Positions 1,598-11,226 of a stretch of DNA of 17,548 bases are shown here, piece by piece. The position numbers and the translations under genes are program-made. Below the pieces are notes generated by a model. The model worked only from the letters and a program-made list of their open reading frames with translations. It ran no database searches and was not told where the DNA came from. The stretch is from a phage. The DNA is taken from assembly GCA_025289735.1 (NCBI GenBank), contig GCA_025289735.1_4764.3; one strand, given 5' to 3'. Position 1 is the stretch's first letter, and each line of letters starts with the position of its first letter.

Positions 1598-4500
1598 ATG
1601 GCAGATTTAAGCAGAATCCAATTTAAACGCACTAGCACTAAAGGTCGTAAACCTGATGCTAGTACGATGAATCCGGGGGAATTGGCAATCAACCTTGCGG
1701 ATCAATATCTTCTTACTAAAAATGATTCCGGTGCTATTATCAATTTAAGTTGTCCTCCGGTGTATGACCGCGATGTTACAATGGCGGGTAAGGTTAAAGG
1801 AAATAATTATATTTTAAGCAAAACCGCCAACTATCTGGAAGATCAGACAGCGCGAGATCTTAACTACTTTGGTGCTTTCCGTACCAATGGTCTTGATGGT
1901 TTTCTCGAACTAACGCTAAACGTTCCTCATTCTTCCGGTATTCAACATGGTCGAGGATTTACTTTCCAGTATGGACACCTTGGATCGCGTGTAGAAACTT
2001 ATGGTTATAATAAAGAAGGACAAAAAGCATTTAGTTATAAAATGTATCATGAAGGGGATAAACCAACTCCAGGAGAATTGAACGTCTATAGCAAACAAGA
2101 AGTAGATCGGATGTTCCAAAAGACACTTGATTTTGGAATTGAGTCCGGTTGGTTTAAAATCGCTACAGTATATCTACCACAACAATATGGGCGTAGTGCT
2201 AAAATTAGATTGGTTGGTGGTAATGGTTATAATGTAGGACAGACCGGGCAAGCTAATATTATTGAATTGGTTCTGCGTAGCGGGAATGGAAATCCGGTTG
2301 GTGTTGTGTTTAACGCTTATATGACCATCTGGTATATAGACCAGAAGTTTTGTGCTATTCCTACTGGTGGTGACTCTTATGATATATACGGTAGCTATTC
2401 CGGTCATACTGGATTTGTGTTGGCTGAATACCAGACTAGCCCTGACGTTAACCTGACTTTATATGATAACCCACAATTTATAGGAAGTCAATTACCGGAA
2501 GCTGAAACAAAGTTCGATGCTTATACAATCACTTCATTTAGTACTTATCGCAACCACGGGACATTAAATTTTGGTGCTAATTCTCAAGGCCAATATGACA
2601 TTGAGCATTTGAACGAACAACCGACAAATGCTAAAAAGATGTTGCGTCGCTTCCGTAGTTGTGCTCCTGCCACTATCTGGCATGAGACAGTTGATGATAA
2701 CCAGTATCGTCTTGCTACTGGATACGAAGATACAAATCAGGAATTATTGCTGACAGCAACATCCGGGTTACATGTCAAGAAATTAACATTGGATGGCGGT
2801 GTCACTGGAAATTCTGGTATTGATATTCGTCGAGGACCAAACGAAGCAAGCCATTTTAATTTTATGGATTATCGCACTGGACAAGATGTTCGTAATGGCT
2901 GGTTTGGCTTCGGTGATGGTCAGACCAAAGATTTTATTTGGTGGAACGATAACGGTCAAAACTCATTAAATCTTTTAGAAAACGGTGAATTACAGATTTC
3001 TGGTGGTAAAGGCCAGAAAATTGTAATGAATAGCGAAGTTGCATTATCTGAAAATGCTCGTTTGGCTGTTAGAGGTGGTAATTATGGCGTGATATTCCGT
3101 AATGATGGAACGAACTTTCATCTGCTTACTACCGATTTAAAAGATTCTTTTGGAAATTGGAATAATCGTAGACCATTTAGTTATGACTTTGCCGAAGGTG
3201 GATTGGATCTAGGTGGCACAACGACCGCACGTTGTTTGCATCTGGGAATTGATGGTAGTACCCGTATCGAGGATAACTTAGTTTTCAGGGCGGGATCTCG
3301 TCAATCAATGGACTACTTAGAATTTGTTCATTGGGGGGCAAGTAATACCGGACGTAATAACGTTTTAAGTCTTCGTGACTCAAAAGGATTTTTAGCAGAA
3401 TTTGAACGTAAAGGTGATAACACCATTCAAAATACATTCTTCGGAAGATTTAAAGTCAATGGTGGTTCTAACGCTATTACCGTTAATGCTCCTACTGATT
3501 CCGAGTCTGTTTATGTGAAAGGTACTTGTAACGATGTAGATAACTGGTATATAGGTAAAGGTGGTGCTGATAATGCATTAGCCTTTTATAGCTATAAGTC
3601 TAATGCGGCTATTTATCTCACAAATAATGGTGAGGTTTTATTAGCCCCACAAAACACCGCAATTGTTAACGTCAATCGCGACCGTATACACATCAACGGT
3701 ACACAGTGGGTGGCAAATCAGCCACATGGCTGGGGTAATCAGTGGCTGTCCGAAGCGCCTATATTCGTTGATTTTGGTACTGGTATTCCAAATGATACCT
3801 ATATGCCAATCATTAAAGCCCGTAGCCAAATTACTGGCGGTTATGCAACTAAGGCCGATTTTGGTATATATCGTCATGGTACTGATACTTGGGGTGATGC
3901 TGTTATTCGTGTCGGTTCTGCCGAAAGTGGTGATAGTAATCATCCAAACGCAATTTATACTTTCCGGGCAAATGGCGATTTTAAAGCTCCGGCTGGCCTC
4001 CGTGCTGGTGTTAACTTGGGTGTTGGTACTGATCCTGTATTGGGTGGACATTCTATTGCTATCGGTGATAATGACACTGGCTTAGTGTGGGGTGGTGATG
4101 GTCGTATTAACATGTTTGCTAACGGACAGCATATTGCATCATGGGGTACGATGTATCAAGAACACTCAGGACTATGGGGAAGTCATGGTGGTTTGTGGAC
4201 AGAAGTCGATAAAGCGATTATTTCTCATGGTCATCTAGTCCAGGCGAATGACAACTATTCTACATATGTTCGTGACATTTATATCCGTTCGGATATTCGC
4301 GTGAAGAAAGACCTAGTTAAATTTGAAAATGCATCTAAGACACTTTCAAAAATTAACGGTTACAAATATCTTCAAAAGCGCGGGACCAATGAAGACGGTA
4401 GCGAACGTTGGGAAGAAAACGCTGGTTTGATTGCTCAGGAAGTTCAAGCTATTTTGCCGGAATTGGTTGAAGGCGATCCAGATAGCGAAAACCTTCTTCG

Positions 4501-4674: not shown

Positions 4675-4971
4675 ATGGGCTATTGGGTAAGTAATGAACA
4701 AGACACTAAAATAGATGCTGTAAAATGGCATGTTTTTGATATTCCTAATGGATATGTTCCCGGTCGTGCTGGTGTTGCCGTTTTGCGGCATACCGCTCGT
4801 GATGGTTGGGGCGATATGCATATTTCCGTTGACGGTGTGGTCGCCGCGCGTCGTCGTGGTGGTGGGGATTGGGGATTTACGGTTAATGCGTTTGTTCCTG
4901 CTGGATGTACTGTCACCTTTGGTCATGGGGGTGTCGGTGGTATTGAATACTTTAAATTTATGGAGTTTTAA
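4675..4971 (+). CDS. Small Gly/Trp-rich protein, paralog A of a tandem triplet (98 aa)
   Basis: ATG with AAGGA 6 nt upstream. Shares MGYWV...FDIPNG...GGGD...G-T-T pattern with the two downstream ORFs. Confidence 0.65.
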   Translation: MGYWVSNEQDTKIDAVKWHVFDIPNGYVPGRAGVAVLRHTARDGWGDMHISVDGVVAARRRGGGDWGFTVNAFVPAGCTVTFGHGGVGGIEYFKFMEF

Positions 4972-4973
4972 TT

Positions 4974-5279
4974 ATGGCTGGTTGGGTTGCTGGAAGAATG
5001 GCTAATGCTATTAGCATTTATGCTAATGGCGGCTGGTTTGGTATCCCTAATGGTTGGGTTACTGATTCATGCGGTATTGTGTCTGTTCATGCCGAAGCCG
5101 TTGGCGGTGGAGGTGACTTGGACGCCGAATTATATGTAAACGGTACTCTAGAATCAGGTCATCACGCTGGTAATGCCGGAAGTTGGGGAGCTAGTTCTTT
5201 AGTTGGTGTTGGTGCTACTGTCAGTTTTAGCATTGGTAAAGGAAGTTTAAACCACTTCCAATTTAGGAGAATGCATTAA
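4974..5279 (+). CDS. Small Gly/Trp-rich protein, paralog B of a tandem triplet (101 aa)
   Basis: ATG 2 nt after the stop of paralog A, GGAG 8 nt upstream. Motifs GWFGIPNGW and GGGGD shared with paralogs A and C. Confidence 0.65.
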   Translation: MAGWVAGRMANAISIYANGGWFGIPNGWVTDSCGIVSVHAEAVGGGGDLDAELYVNGTLESGHHAGNAGSWGASSLVGVGATVSFSIGKGSLNHFQFRRMH

Positions 5280-5578
5280 TGGGATATTGGGTGTATGGCG
5301 TTTTAGACAATAAAGCCGGTAAAGCGAATCAGGGATGGTTTGATATTCCTAACGGTTGGACAGCCGACGCTTTCGGTACGGTTTCATTTGGTGCTCATTC
5401 TTCTGGTGGTGGTGGTGACTCAGAATTGCTTTTGCATGGCTTTTGTGTGTCTGGAAGTCATAAGGGTCATGATTGGGGACAGATCCATTCTTGTATTGTG
5501 CCGCAGGGAGTAACGATCACGGTAACTACAAACAGGGGCATTTCCCATCTTCGTTATAGACGCCAGAGCAACCGTTAA
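5279..5578 (+). CDS. Small Gly/Trp-rich protein, paralog C of a tandem triplet (99 aa)
   Basis: Start overlaps the stop of paralog B (TAATG). AGGAGA 8 nt upstream. Motifs MGYWV, GWFDIPNGW, GGGGD. Confidence 0.65.
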   Translation: MGYWVYGVLDNKAGKANQGWFDIPNGWTADAFGTVSFGAHSSGGGGDSELLLHGFCVSGSHKGHDWGQIHSCIVPQGVTITVTTNRGISHLRYRRQSNR

Positions 5579-7962: not shown

Positions 7963-8331
7963 TCACTTAACAAAGATTTTCTTTAATGCTTTCAGGATCG
8001 TTGCTTCCGGCGCTTCTTCCGGTGGAGGAAGCAATTCTACCACTTCCTCTTCCAACTCGATATAGTCTACCAGATATTCTACATAGAATGCAAGTGCTTC
8101 CATGAAATTAGATGCTACATCCGATTCACCACACGCGCCTACATGCATTGTATAAACATCACTGCGATCAAGTTTGTGGATACTGCCTAGATAGTTTCGG
8201 TTATACCAGACTTCCCACACTTTCAGCTTTCCGGTTTTGGTTGCTGTTTTATAATCGGTTTCGTAGTGGTGCAATTGACGTTGCAGATCATTGATAATAA
8301 CACATTTTTCGTAATTGTTTTGAATTTCCAT
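7963..8331 (-). CDS. Hypothetical early protein (122 aa), acidic Pro-rich C-terminus
   Basis: ATG with GAGGAT upstream. C-terminus ELEEEVVELLPPPEEAPEA. Confidence 0.55.
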   Translation of the reverse strand: MEIQNNYEKCVIINDLQRQLHHYETDYKTATKTGKLKVWEVWYNRNYLGSIHKLDRSDVYTMHVGACGESDVASNFMEALAFYVEYLVDYIELEEEVVELLPPPEEAPEATILKALKKIFVK

Positions 8332-8341
8332 GATGTAATCC

Positions 8342-8533
8342 TCACTTATCGTTAAGAAGATCTAAAACTTTCTGTCGTACTTTGTCAATATTAGTTGATT
8401 CAAAAACTGTACGGTATCCCCAGCTTTGACCGTATGAGCGGTTGCAATCTCCATATCCCCATTGTTCAACCTGATAGTATTCAAGGAATGGATGCTGCCG
8501 AACTATGATACCATCGCGGTTAAAAATTACCAT
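8342..8533 (-). CDS. Hypothetical early protein (63 aa)
   Basis: ATG with GAGGA 7 nt upstream. Trp/Tyr/Gly-rich small protein. Confidence 0.45.
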   Translation of the reverse strand: MVIFNRDGIIVRQHPFLEYYQVEQWGYGDCNRSYGQSWGYRTVFESTNIDKVRQKVLDLLNDK

Positions 8534-8556
8534 AATATAATCCTCACGTCAACAAC

Positions 8557-8838
8557 TTATTTTCGGTTATACTTCTGCCACTTTCGGTAATACTGCTTGT
8601 AATATTGTTTAATGTTTGGTGGTTCGTCACTATACATGTTATCAACCATCATGTCAATAAGACCTTCCGGTGTTTGATAGTTACCCGCTCGAATGAGTTC
8701 CTTAATCAAAAGATCTTGCGTCGCTTTATACTTGACAATAACAACTGTCTTTTCTGCCTTTCCAATTCCGATCCGGTCGTTAGCTCTCATAGCATCCCAC
8801 CAATCTTTTTTAAACTTCATGTTGTTAAATTTCATCAT
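8557..8838 (-). CDS. Hypothetical early protein (93 aa), basic Tyr/Lys-rich C-terminus
   Basis: Two consecutive ATG codons with AAGAAGGG upstream, overlapping the stop of the 266-aa gene. Confidence 0.5.
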   Translation of the reverse strand: MMKFNNMKFKKDWWDAMRANDRIGIGKAEKTVVIVKYKATQDLLIKELIRAGNYQTPEGLIDMMVDNMYSDEPPNIKQYYKQYYRKWQKYNRK

Positions 8839-9639
8839 TTAACCCTTCTTATATTCGCAAACATATTGAGTACCATAATCATAGCTAATGCGACCTTTCT
8901 CGATGACTTCAAAGCGGATTTCATCGTTTTCCCCTACCCACATTTTGTACTCGTTGAAGTATCCTGCTACATCCGGTTTGCTCATACCAACAACCATATT
9001 TTTATATTGTTTGCTGCGTGTCAGATTTGATTTAAACACTTCGCGCTCATCAACATATACGAAAGAAGACAATTCACCTTCGGTCATGGTCATTTTCAGC
9101 TTGCCGCCCTTGTTGCCATAAGTAGAGTTGCCATACAATGGATCTTTGCGGCTGTCTGTTTCAATACCATCAATGATTTTCCATGTAAATTTTGCAATGC
9201 ACTGGTAAGTGATAGATCCAGAGATTTTCTCTTCTTTCTTCTGTTCTTCCACCACTTTTTCTTCCTGTTTCGGTTGTTCTTCTTCAACCTTCACAGAAGT
9301 CTCTGAATCGCTTTCTGACGCGGTTTCTTCTTTAGGTAATACATTCATCAAGTTTTGGATTTGAGCGTGATATACAGCCTCCAGTGGCTGAATTTTCCCG
9401 ATATTGATCATTGTATCACGAACAGTTTTATTCCAGTTGCGTTGCTCTTGTTTCAGAGACGGATCAATCTTAACAGCCTTAACATATACTTCATGAAGTT
9501 TAGAATCAAGTGCGGAGATAGACTCATTAGCACAAATAAACTTCTCTGATTTGGTAGTAGCTTTAGCGCAATCAAAGGACGCAGCATTAGCACCGAAAGC
9601 AGTAGCAGAAAGAACGATAGCAGCGATAATGTTTTTCAT
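8839..9639 (-). CDS. Secreted protein with N-terminal LprI/DUF1311-like domain, charged linker and C-terminal beta-rich domain (266 aa)
   Basis: ATG with GAGGAA 8 nt upstream, directly downstream of promoter cassette P3. Signal peptide MKNIIAAIVLSATAFGANA|AS. Then FDCAKATTKSEKFICANESISALDSKLHEVY...QEQRNWNKTVRD, fitting the DUF1311 pattern as I recall it (C..A.T..E..IC...LD..L..Y...Q..W...RD). E/K-rich linker. C-terminal domain with two Cys and an SGSITY motif. Confidence 0.7.
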   Translation of the reverse strand: MKNIIAAIVLSATAFGANAASFDCAKATTKSEKFICANESISALDSKLHEVYVKAVKIDPSLKQEQRNWNKTVRDTMINIGKIQPLEAVYHAQIQNLMNVLPKEETASESDSETSVKVEEEQPKQEEKVVEEQKKEEKISGSITYQCIAKFTWKIIDGIETDSRKDPLYGNSTYGNKGGKLKMTMTEGELSSFVYVDEREVFKSNLTRSKQYKNMVVGMSKPDVAGYFNEYKMWVGENDEIRFEVIEKGRISYDYGTQYVCEYKKG

Positions 9640-9673
9640 AATATATTCCTCAGTGTTTTGTCTTGATGGTAGT

Positions 9674-9702
9674 ATGTTACTACTCCCTTAATCCGGTGTC
9701 AA
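9674..9702 (-). promoter_or_regulatory. Sigma70-like early promoter P3 (-35 TTGACA, 17-nt spacer, -10 TAACAT)
   Basis: Minus-strand sequence aaaaagtagTTGACA-N17-TAACAT, about 35 nt upstream of the ATG at 9639. A-rich upstream element. Shares a conserved leader with the other cassettes. Confidence 0.6.
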
Positions 9703-9709
9703 CTACTTT

Positions 9710-9865
9710 TTAAATTTCTTCTACAGTAAAGTCTTCAATGTTGTTGTGCTCGGAGAACGTTGCCAGACCAGCATTCCATGCATCATCCTCAGAGAAGAAT
9801 ACACCGTAACGTTCATATCCCTTAGCGCCTTCAAATTTAACCATTAATTTGTGAGTATGTTTCAT
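9710..9865 (-). CDS. Hypothetical early protein (51 aa), acidic
   Basis: ATG at 9863..9865 with AAGGAG 7 nt upstream, downstream of P4. The track ORF start at 9898 lies inside the promoter. Confidence 0.5.
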   Translation of the reverse strand: MKHTHKLMVKFEGAKGYERYGVFFSEDDAWNAGLATFSEHNNIEDFTVEEI

Positions 9866-9896
9866 TTTGATTCTCCTTAGTTGTCTTGATGAGTTC

Positions 9897-9925
9897 ATTA
9901 TAGGGGATCACCGATCCCCTGTCAA
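9897..9925 (-). promoter_or_regulatory. Sigma70-like early promoter P4 (-35 TTGACA, palindromic 17-nt spacer, -10 TATAAT)
   Basis: Minus-strand GTTGACA-GGGGATCGGTGATCCCC-TATAAT. The spacer is a perfect inverted repeat containing two GATC sites. Confidence 0.6.
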
Positions 9926-9933
9926 CAACTATT

Positions 9934-10146
9934 TTAATGTTTACCCACGCGTAAATTAATGCGCATTTTCTGCATAGCCATGATCTGGTTTACTGCTTCT
10001 TCTTTACGTTCTTGCGTGATAACGTGACCAGATTCCGCAAACTCTCCCGCAACTTCTTCTACAATCTCGCGAACTTGAGAACGTCCAAAGATGCGGTTTC
10101 CTTCGTAGCTCATAAATTCAGTCACTACTTGCTCAATAGATTTCAT
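9934..10146 (-). CDS. Hypothetical early protein (70 aa)
   Basis: ATG with AAGGAG 7 nt upstream, downstream of P1. Confidence 0.55.
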   Translation of the reverse strand: MKSIEQVVTEFMSYEGNRIFGRSQVREIVEEVAGEFAESGHVITQERKEEAVNQIMAMQKMRINLRVGKH

Positions 10147-10178
10147 GTGATTCTCCTTCTTTCGTTTGGTATGGGAGT

Positions 10179-10207
10179 ATATTACTACTCCCGTTTCTTT
10201 ACGTCAA
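10179..10207 (-). promoter_or_regulatory. Sigma70-like early promoter P1 (-35 TTGACG, 17-nt spacer, -10 TAATAT)
   Basis: Minus-strand ctaaaaaccaGTTGACG-N17-TAATAT followed by the conserved leader ATACTCCCATACCAAAC and the RBS. Confidence 0.6.
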
Positions 10208-10214
10208 CTGGTTT

Positions 10215-10457
10215 TTAGAAATTTTTCGCTTCTTCTTCGGTAATCATAACCGCGCATTCGTGCATAACTTTGAAAACCGGATCAATCATGTCGAATGCTT
10301 CGCGGGACAGTTTACGAGAAGCGATTTTGATTGCTTCAACGTCTTCGACTACAGGAACAAAAACAGTTTTCAGTTCATCGAGAACGGCAGCTTCTTTTTC
10401 ATTCAGGAAGATCCCAGCGTCGTACAGTGCAACTTCGATAACATTAACTTTAACCAT
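10215..10457 (-). CDS. Hypothetical early protein (80 aa), acidic
   Basis: ATG at 10455..10457 with GGAGGAAA upstream, downstream of P2. The track N-terminal extension is a translation of the promoter. Confidence 0.55.
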   Translation of the reverse strand: MVKVNVIEVALYDAGIFLNEKEAAVLDELKTVFVPVVEDVEAIKIASRKLSREAFDMIDPVFKVMHECAVMITEEEAKNF

Positions 10458-10491: not shown

Positions 10492-10520
10492 ATAATACTA
10501 CCGATGACCTTTGGCGTCAA
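10492..10520 (-). promoter_or_regulatory. Sigma70-like early promoter P2 (-35 TTGACG, 17-nt spacer, -10 TATTAT)
   Basis: Minus-strand acaaaaaactaGTTGACG-N17-TATTAT followed by the conserved leader ATACTCCCATACCGAAAC. Overlaps the 3' end of the upstream gene. Confidence 0.6.
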
Positions 10521-10722
10521 CTAGTTTTTTGTTATTTTCGTGAAAATTTTTCGTCGCCTCATGTGCTTTTCGCTGGGCTTCTTGTTGTGCTTGCTGGCGT
10601 GCTGCCTCTTGCGATGCCATAACAGACGCATTTGCAGCAGTTACAGCCGCGACCATCGCTGCGGTATTAGCATTTACCGTACATGCACTAGCCAGCAAAG
10701 CAATTGCAATCATTTTCTTCAT
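10498..10722 (-). CDS. Small secreted protein or lipoprotein (74 aa) with Gln/Ala-rich helical mature region
   Basis: ATG with AAGGGG 6 nt upstream, overlapping the upstream stop (ATGA). N-terminus MKKMIAIALLASAC has a lipobox-like LASAC; an alternative signal peptidase I site lies at VNA|NT. Mature part QEAARQQAQQEAQRKAHEATK. Confidence 0.6.
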   Translation of the reverse strand: MKKMIAIALLASACTVNANTAAMVAAVTAANASVMASQEAARQQAQQEAQRKAHEATKNFHENNKKLVDAKGHR

Positions 10723-11197: not shown

Positions 11198-11226
11198 ATT
11201 ATGCGAGGCTGGATTCGTGAAGTCAA
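11198..11226 (-). promoter_or_regulatory. Sigma70-like early promoter P5 (-35 TTGACT, 17-nt spacer, -10 CATAAT)
   Basis: Minus-strand attttaaaaagttGTTGACT-N17-CATAAT followed by leader ATACACACATACCAAAC and the RBS. Lies immediately downstream of the terminator at 11236..11267. Confidence 0.6.

Follow-up and report, generated by a model that had tools for sequence, protein, structure and literature searches.

Of the proteins by which T4-like phages exclude superinfection, only a few are understood (Imm, Spackle), and these appear to be missing from the RB49 group. T4 Spackle (gene 61.3) is a small early periplasmic protein that blocks secondary infection; it is an α-helical bundle, highly conserved in 178 homologues and selective for the gp5 lysozyme (PMC7677548). 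In bacteria, proteins of the LprI/DUF1311 family have repeatedly been linked to the neutralization of periplasmic wall-degrading proteins. M. tuberculosis LprI joins DUF1311 with the lysozyme-inhibitor domain MliC (PMC7933661), Etsi4, a DUF1311 protein of enterohaemorrhagic E. coli (EHEC), rescues the periplasmic toxicity of Etse4, a type VI secretion system (T6SS) effector (PMC12981562), and genes with an LprI domain, predicted to confer immunity, are found beside T6SS effectors of the lysozyme-like or peptidoglycan-hydrolase kind (PMC9796082, PMC8867033, PMC12135965). Here, we analyze a gene of this family (positions 8839..9639, minus strand) in a 17,548-nucleotide stretch of phage DNA (contig GCA_025289735.1_4764.3, hereafter the window). 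We report that its product combines a constant LprI/DUF1311 head with a β-barrel that varies sharply from one close relative to another, and we propose, with a probability of roughly 45%, that it may be an envelope-protection or superinfection-exclusion factor, a periplasmic binder that would shield infected cells or lysogens against incoming proteins that degrade the wall or serve in penetration.

The window belongs to a Krischvirus, one of the T4-like coliphages grouped with RB49, Phi1 and GEC-3S, and the 2.8 kb surrounding the gene are 94-97% identical to many Krischvirus genomes. A first-pass annotation, made from the letters alone, had read the gene as an early-expressed periplasmic protein and a candidate lysozyme inhibitor or superinfection-exclusion factor. 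The gene is real: the open reading frame (ORF) is exact, with 266 codons and a stop, and corresponds to BN201_0263 in GEC-3S and RB49ORF260c in RB49, both annotated "hypothetical protein". Along its entire length the product matches PHROG 14799, a family of unknown function (E value 4e-155). The full-length gene occurs in 57 phage records, and the gene is found in essentially all Krischvirus records. UniProt names the RB49 protein "LprI-like N-terminal domain-containing protein", and a weak DUF1311 match (E value 0.2) had already been given to RB49ORF260c by Nolan et al. 2006 (PMC1524935); the DUF1311 call is thus correct, yet already in public databases and hence not new. In the literature that we searched, no work on the function of this phage gene turned up.

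Constant head and exchangeable barrels

We compared 21 close homologues drawn from a collection of 5.8 billion proteins. Residues 1-125, which span the signal peptide, the head and ~24 residues at the start of the linker, show 93-99% identity in all relatives except the divergent P0020 (78-82%). Identity among the barrels is only 15-51%, and we labeled their types A to F. Types A to E align with one another, while homology of type F to them is not demonstrable (BLASTP E value 1.5; hhalign probability of 12%, over the first strand only), so that there are at least two barrel classes without demonstrable homology. In one further relative, P0021, the C terminus is unrelated and looks helical from its sequence. 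At the DNA level, the window is 93-100% identical to phages JSE, RB49 and FL04 along the N-terminal module; identity drops to 25-57% at around residues 120-140, stays low across the barrel and part of the following gene (8557-8838), and regains >95% about 250 nt past the stop codon. Across 11 records, which come from 9 distinct phages, the type-A cassette shows 99-99.7% identity, as against ~96-97% identity to the window for the surrounding 2.8-kb region of these phages, which fits a recent horizontal spread of the cassette. According to our literature searches, this constant-head, swappable-barrel polymorphism appears to be new.

The protein begins with a Sec signal peptide (residues 1-19, MKNIIAAIVLSATAFGANA; 9583..9639, minus strand) that ends in a signal peptidase I A-x-A site, with cleavage predicted after A-N-A and the mature protein starting ASFDC. 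This assignment, which agrees with the first-pass annotation, was read from the residues themselves and not from a predictor. The signal peptide is conserved in all homologues, and residues 1-20 have a predicted local distance difference test (pLDDT) score below 50 in the AlphaFold2 (AF2) model. On the same reading there is no lipobox with a Cys at the cleavage site: no [LVI][ASTVI][GAS]C occurs, the segment ends ...FGANA/ASFDC, and the first Cys lies five residues past the A-x-A site, so the protein does not look like an outer-membrane lipoprotein of the T5 Llp or Cor kind. We infer a periplasmic location.

The head (residues 20-101; 9337..9582, minus strand) is an LprI/DUF1311-like helical domain. 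PF07007 matches residues 24-76 with 23.4 bits, just above its gathering score of 22 (E value 8e-5). This places the protein in the Pfam family on a marginal match that takes in about two thirds of the profile (positions 1-71 of 106); the same family is precomputed for 12 of the 21 close homologues. The DUF1311 pattern first seen by eye thus holds as a partial one. The domain has two cysteines (Cys24 and Cys36); for the family, four conserved ones are described (PMC7933661). In the full-length AF2 model the head forms four helices (30-37, 39-58, 62-80 and 83-98; pLDDT 70-84). It is followed by the expected E/K-rich linker, an acidic, lysine-rich segment at about residues 102-139 (9223..9336, minus strand), which is predicted to be disordered (pLDDT below 50 for residues 104-138) and varies in length among alleles through insertions and deletions.

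The hypervariable C-terminal barrel (residues 140-266; 8842..9222, minus strand), modeled alone with AF2, is all-β with eight strands (pLDDT 89; predicted template modeling score 0.82), as foreseen for a Cys-containing, β-rich domain. Cys147 in β1 and Cys261 in β8 are, besides one Gly, the sole residues kept in every barrel variant, and, from their placement, a disulfide between them probably closes the barrel seam.

We also found the gene outside virulent phages, as P0019 and related proteins are chromosomal in E. coli. Of 5426 complete E. coli genomes searched at the DNA level, 26 have it, in each case on the chromosome, and NCBI names the E. coli copies "lysozyme inhibitor LprI family protein"; in 20 of these 26 genomes only the first 371 nt are shared with the window gene. 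We read the context at two loci (strains 14EC017 and E275a), where the gene is the last of a prophage and adjoins the attachment site, a moron position. The prophage also carries a terminase gpA, a Rha regulator and, adjoining the target gene, a 184-aa gene of divergent orientation whose sequence looks Nu1-like; the insertion of the prophage in hicB leaves the antitoxin gene truncated and hicA intact (~8000-10400 of the extracted loci). A weak promoter-like site lies 5′ of the prophage copy and a strong 10-bp terminator-like hairpin 3′ of it. The barrel is of type B in 14EC017 and of type F in E275a; type F is also found in phage JSE, and type B otherwise only in metagenome-derived sequences. 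Homology between window and prophage runs from 6 nt 5′ of the ATG to about residue 125, at ~95% DNA identity, and the 14EC017 copy is followed after its stop codon by a 76-nt remnant of the 5′ end of the Krischvirus downstream gene, which suggests transfer from a Krischvirus-like phage into the prophage. That the N-terminal module and at least one barrel type are common to virulent and temperate coliphages appears to be new.

The architecture extends further. A signal peptide, a DUF1311 head (AASFDC...QRxW), a linker and a C-terminal domain of another kind make up proteins of 230-255 aa in Klebsiella T4-like phages, in Aeromonas Ceceduovirus and Ludhianavirus, in Salmonella phage SSU5 and in others, including Escherichia phage ev099. 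A profile search built from an alignment of six phage proteins returned 114 relatives with many different C-terminal partners; the N-terminal domain alone, used as the query of a homologue search, returned nothing, which looks like a quirk of the word index. DUF3298 scores above threshold in 4 of the 114 relatives, one of which also carries a sub-threshold PdaC/DUF4163 match (28.5 bits against 29.1); DUF4163 and DUF3298 form the lysozyme-binding domain pair of RsiV (PMC5014341). An equation of Tai4 with DUF1311 was dropped, since CDD lists them as different domains. In Klebsiella phage Biddle_MM4, the DUF1311 fusion gene lies downstream of the primase gene 61 and ~2 kb from an annotated Spackle gene (142-294 and 2501-3262 of the extracted locus), which is the classical sp neighborhood of T4.

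The barrel and the question of lysozyme inhibition

The first-pass annotation had likened the protein to bacterial LprI and expected an MliC-type C-terminal domain. The parallel in layout stands: M. tuberculosis LprI (Rv1541c) is likewise exported and has an N-terminal LprI/DUF1311 domain followed by a small β-domain. LprI is, however, a lipoprotein with a true MliC domain (PF09864), whereas the phage protein has neither a lipobox nor any MliC match or motif. The profile scan that had been suggested returned PF07007 but not MliC, with no PF09864 match at E≤10 either for the protein or for 15 barrel variants, and a profile search against all PDB sequences found no MliC or PliC. Both motifs of these inhibitors, SxSGAxY on the β4-β5 loop and YxxxTKG on β6 (PMC5507604), are absent from the barrel; the β4-β5 loop here reads LTRSKQYKN and differs between alleles, and β6 reads FNEYKMWV. 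The SGSxxY string once taken for a domain motif is SGSITY, located before or at the start of β1 and not on the β4-β5 loop, and it is confined to this allele and the one most closely related to it; the strings at that position elsewhere are NITAIY, ETFTY, SEFTL and the like. We therefore reject an MliC identity of the C-terminal domain at the level of both sequence and motif.

At the level of fold, the model is the eight-stranded antiparallel β-barrel that defines MliC and PliC, and it is compatible with an inhibitor of the MliC/PliC or ACP type. Structural comparison goes no further than this compatibility: a Foldseek search of the PDB gave no match at E≤1e-3, lipocalins top the list, and PliC-type inhibitors are among many matches and not the best. 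Lipocalins, outer-membrane proteins, Cap15 and designed barrels score equally well or better; the fold is a generic up-and-down barrel, and so does not by itself point to an inhibitor or single out any function. A phmmer search of the barrel against 1.84 billion cluster representatives returned its own cluster only, and a fold search of BFVD retrieved, besides the RB49 orthologue, only stand-alone phage barrels with no known function, of which one carries the annotation lipoprotein. We also considered an integral eight-stranded outer-membrane barrel (OmpA, OmpW, NspA) and rejected it, as the hydrophobic outer surface and C-terminal aromatic β-signal of such proteins are not found here.

These results bear on the narrow form of the idea, in which the barrel would act like MliC, PliC or ACP as a lysozyme (muramidase) inhibitor on the gp5-type tail lysozyme of superinfecting T4-like phages, making the protein an analogue of Spackle. 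We regard this as doubtful. Besides the LprI-like layout, it draws on Neisseria ACP, a lysozyme-inhibiting eight-stranded barrel without MliC motifs that carries a β1-β8 disulfide (PMC5507604) and to which the phage barrel, with eight strands and a β1/β8 Cys pair, is alike. RB49 encodes a gp5 tail lysozyme and has no detectable Spackle, so that an analogue of Spackle is plausible. On the other hand, the phage barrel has no sequence relationship to the known barrel inhibitors and lacks their SxSGAxY loop and YxxxTKG strand, the loop is not conserved between alleles, and barrels that are not inhibitors match it equally well or better. A conserved enzyme target would poorly explain barrels that are unrelated in sequence, and the LprI domain is unproven as an inhibitor.

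The comparison with Spackle itself was made through RB49, the carrier of the orthologue RB49ORF260c. A tblastn search with T4 Spackle found nothing significant anywhere in RB49; the query sequence was validated by a match in a Klebsiella phage (E value 1e-9). The RB49 annotation contains no gene named sp or imm. The absence of a BLAST-detectable Spackle from RB49 appears to be new. Judged via this search, the protein described here is not a member of the Spackle family: it is a two-domain protein whose hypervariable domain is an all-β barrel and has no sequence similarity to Spackle, and the likeness to Spackle as a small early periplasmic protein blocking secondary infection would hold if the exclusion hypothesis is right. 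The putative endolysin of RB49 (ORF102c) is a D-Ala-D-Ala-carboxypeptidase-like protein and not a T4-type lysozyme.

Envelope protection and its alternatives

In the envelope-protection model, a σ70-type promoter belonging to the gene itself, within the leftward block of early genes, would drive a soluble periplasmic protein. Once mature, this would consist of a helical LprI/DUF1311 head that stays constant, a flexible acidic linker (~38 residues) and a compact eight-stranded β-barrel. The constancy of the head would reflect a conserved function, such as binding to a conserved peptidoglycan hydrolase, cell-wall binding or self-association. Specificity would reside in the exchangeable barrel, which would bind and neutralize a periplasm-exposed protein of incoming competitors, for example a muralytic or penetration protein associated with the tail of another phage, or a different wall-degrading toxin. 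Each barrel allele would then exclude its own competitors, and such allele-specific exclusion would explain both the shuffling of cassettes among Krischvirus and their capture as prophage morons, where they could protect the lysogen. A defensive periplasmic role is strengthened by the hypervariable barrel, the moron position in prophages and the lack of a detectable Spackle in RB49. Exclusion or immunity in this broad sense is better supported than lysozyme inhibition specifically, which remains a guess.

The nearest described counterparts for such a role may be the DUF1311 immunity proteins of T6SS, EHEC Etsi4 and the candidate SED_RS06230 of Salmonella Dublin, which likewise have a signal peptide and DUF1311, are periplasmic and are directed against wall-targeting proteins. 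Unlike the phage protein, they are single-domain (146 aa for SED_RS06230) and encoded beside their effector; the phage protein has an extra barrel and no adjacent effector gene.

Several observations weigh against envelope protection. The variation reads as an arms-race signature, but relaxed constraint or cassette exchange unrelated to exclusion could also give hypervariability. No barrel-type polymorphism is seen in the Klebsiella phage homologues, which are 81-100% conserved over the whole protein, so that the polymorphism is specific to the E. coli group; moreover, Klebsiella T4-like phages carry Spackle and the DUF1311 fusion protein together, and the two are thus not simple alternatives. 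PADLOC-DB matched neither the window protein nor one of the prophage copies; a weak match to PDC-S13 (E value 0.0044) came from the other copy. To these we add the marginal PF07007 match and the generic barrel fold. According to PMC7933661, inhibition of lysozyme by the LprI domain itself has no experimental backing, and ScwA, which contains such a domain, is not an inhibitor of lysozyme.

A more ambitious form of the proposal, which we put forward tentatively and hold to be unlikely as it stands, is that the window encodes one allele of a polymorphic periplasmic immunity system common to virulent T4-like coliphages and prophages, in which a DUF1311 handle would carry interchangeable, disulfide-closed barrel cassettes, each directed against a different periplasm-exposed protein of competing phages or of bacterial wall-degrading toxins. 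If true, such a handle-and-cassette system would be a new class of superinfection exclusion, with an allele diversity comparable to that of polymorphic toxin-immunity loci.

Besides the narrow lysozyme inhibitor discussed above, we weighed a receptor masker, a modulator of host hydrolases and a small-ligand binder, and all four are less likely than envelope protection. Receptor masking would have the barrel attach to an outer-membrane receptor at its plug or periplasmic face, blocking adsorption or DNA ejection by phages that use this receptor and saving progeny from inactivation on cell debris. Prophage morons such as cor act in this way, and the protein described here is periplasmic by prediction, probably early and polymorphic, and encoded ~2-4 kb from tail-fiber and holin genes. 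T5 Llp, which acts on FhuA, supplies a phage precedent (PMC9586334). We nonetheless find this improbable, since without a lipobox the protein is not an outer-membrane lipoprotein like Llp, and since barrel type does not track fiber-tip type. The gp37 tip of the window and the three small ORFs behind it match phage G2248, which has a type-C barrel, while the type-A phages GEC-3S, E26 and Phi1 are without the window's fiber tip; no association between barrel type and tip type was seen in this set of isolates, whose diversity is limited. A masking function matched to the phage's own adhesin is thus not supported by the sequences.

Modulation of a host cell-wall enzyme is a slimmer prospect still. 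Here the DUF1311 head would bind or stabilize a host peptidoglycan hydrolase and condition the wall for infection or lysis, and the variability of the barrel would be incidental. The precedent is Salmonella ScwA, a periplasmic protein that raises MltD levels and causes lysis when overproduced (PMC7933661), and a holin gene is nearby. ScwA resembles the phage protein in being a soluble periplasmic LprI-domain protein, and its disulfides are functionally important; it differs in that its LprI domain is C-terminal and that it is an all-helical, chromosomally encoded protein of 275 aa that regulates MltD. Enzyme modulation would leave the hypervariable, cassette-like barrel and its capture as a prophage moron unexplained, and RB49 retains rI and t for lysis control. 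Finally, binding of a small hydrophobic or envelope-derived molecule (a lipid, a lipopolysaccharide fragment or a signal) by a lipocalin-like barrel is very improbable, given that no fold match is significant and that extreme sequence turnover and replacement by unrelated barrels are more typical of protein-protein arms races.

Returning to envelope protection, the polymorphism, the sharing between virulent and temperate phages and the lack of a detectable Spackle in RB49 make the exclusion hypothesis directly testable. The gene is present in essentially every Krischvirus record, comes with natural specificity variants and has been acquired by E. coli prophages, and the barrel alleles found in nature offer, in effect, a swap experiment already set up. 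Should the model hold, the locus would provide a tractable system for phage-phage conflict in the periplasm, could help to explain host-range failures in phage cocktails, and would give a first functional clue for the widespread phage proteins of Klebsiella, Aeromonas and Salmonella phages that combine a signal peptide, DUF1311, a linker and an extra domain.

Promoter, timing and neighboring genes

A σ70-type promoter-like site, TTGACA-17-TAACAT (9674..9702, minus strand), matches the consensus 5′ of the gene on its coding strand, and a promoter is annotated at the homologous site of GEC-3S. The 80 nt upstream of the gene are 93-100% identical in RB49, JSE and FL04, and a Shine-Dalgarno-like GAGGAA (9646..9651, minus strand) lies 6 nt 5′ of the ATG. 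The T4-type late promoter TATAAATA does not occur anywhere within the window. Across the region, promoter-like matches are not in excess (14, against 15.2 in shuffled sequence). Of the early promoter claimed by the first-pass annotation, the site itself is borne out, while early expression is plausible from the promoter consensus and the orientation of the gene. Further σ70-consensus sites with 10-12 of 12 matches lie on the coding strand at 9897-9925 (minus strand), 8629-8657, 10492-10520 and 11198-11226; several of these strong sites are directly 5′ of small genes of the leftward block, and the one at 8629-8657 is inside the 93-aa gene described below. The ORF listed at 9710-9898 probably starts at an internal Met near 9865, as annotated in E26.

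The gene lies in a leftward block of small genes between the holin gene t and the topoisomerase gene 52. Annotated neighbors on the plus strand are the long-tail-fiber genes 36 and 37 and holin t; beyond the block, the window also holds gene 52, rIIB and the start of rIIA. Immediately downstream, with no gap, is a 93-aa gene (8557..8838, minus strand; phrog_15915) without a signal peptide, which falls within the same divergent DNA tract. Its product is 48-76% identical among the phages compared above (the window, JSE, RB49 and FL04), whose flanks are >95% identical, and co-varies in part with the barrel cassette. It may be functionally linked to the target gene or a mere hitch-hiker. A 74-aa ORF in the same block (10498-10722, minus strand) starts with a Sec-like signal peptide (MKKMIAIALLASACTVNA), and its mature part is Q/A-rich; neither Pfam nor PHROG gave a match, and the product may be another small early protein that is secreted.

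Directly 3′ of gene 37 are three tandem paralogous ORFs of ~100 aa (4675-4971, 4974-5279 and 5279-5578, plus strand), which are 28-30% identical to one another and have the common motif MGYWV..FDIPNGWV..GGGGD. The module is present in G2248 and UPWr_E1 and has no match in GEC-3S, RB49 or FL04, the last of which carries a gp38 adhesin instead. It looks like an alternative fiber-tip or adhesin module.

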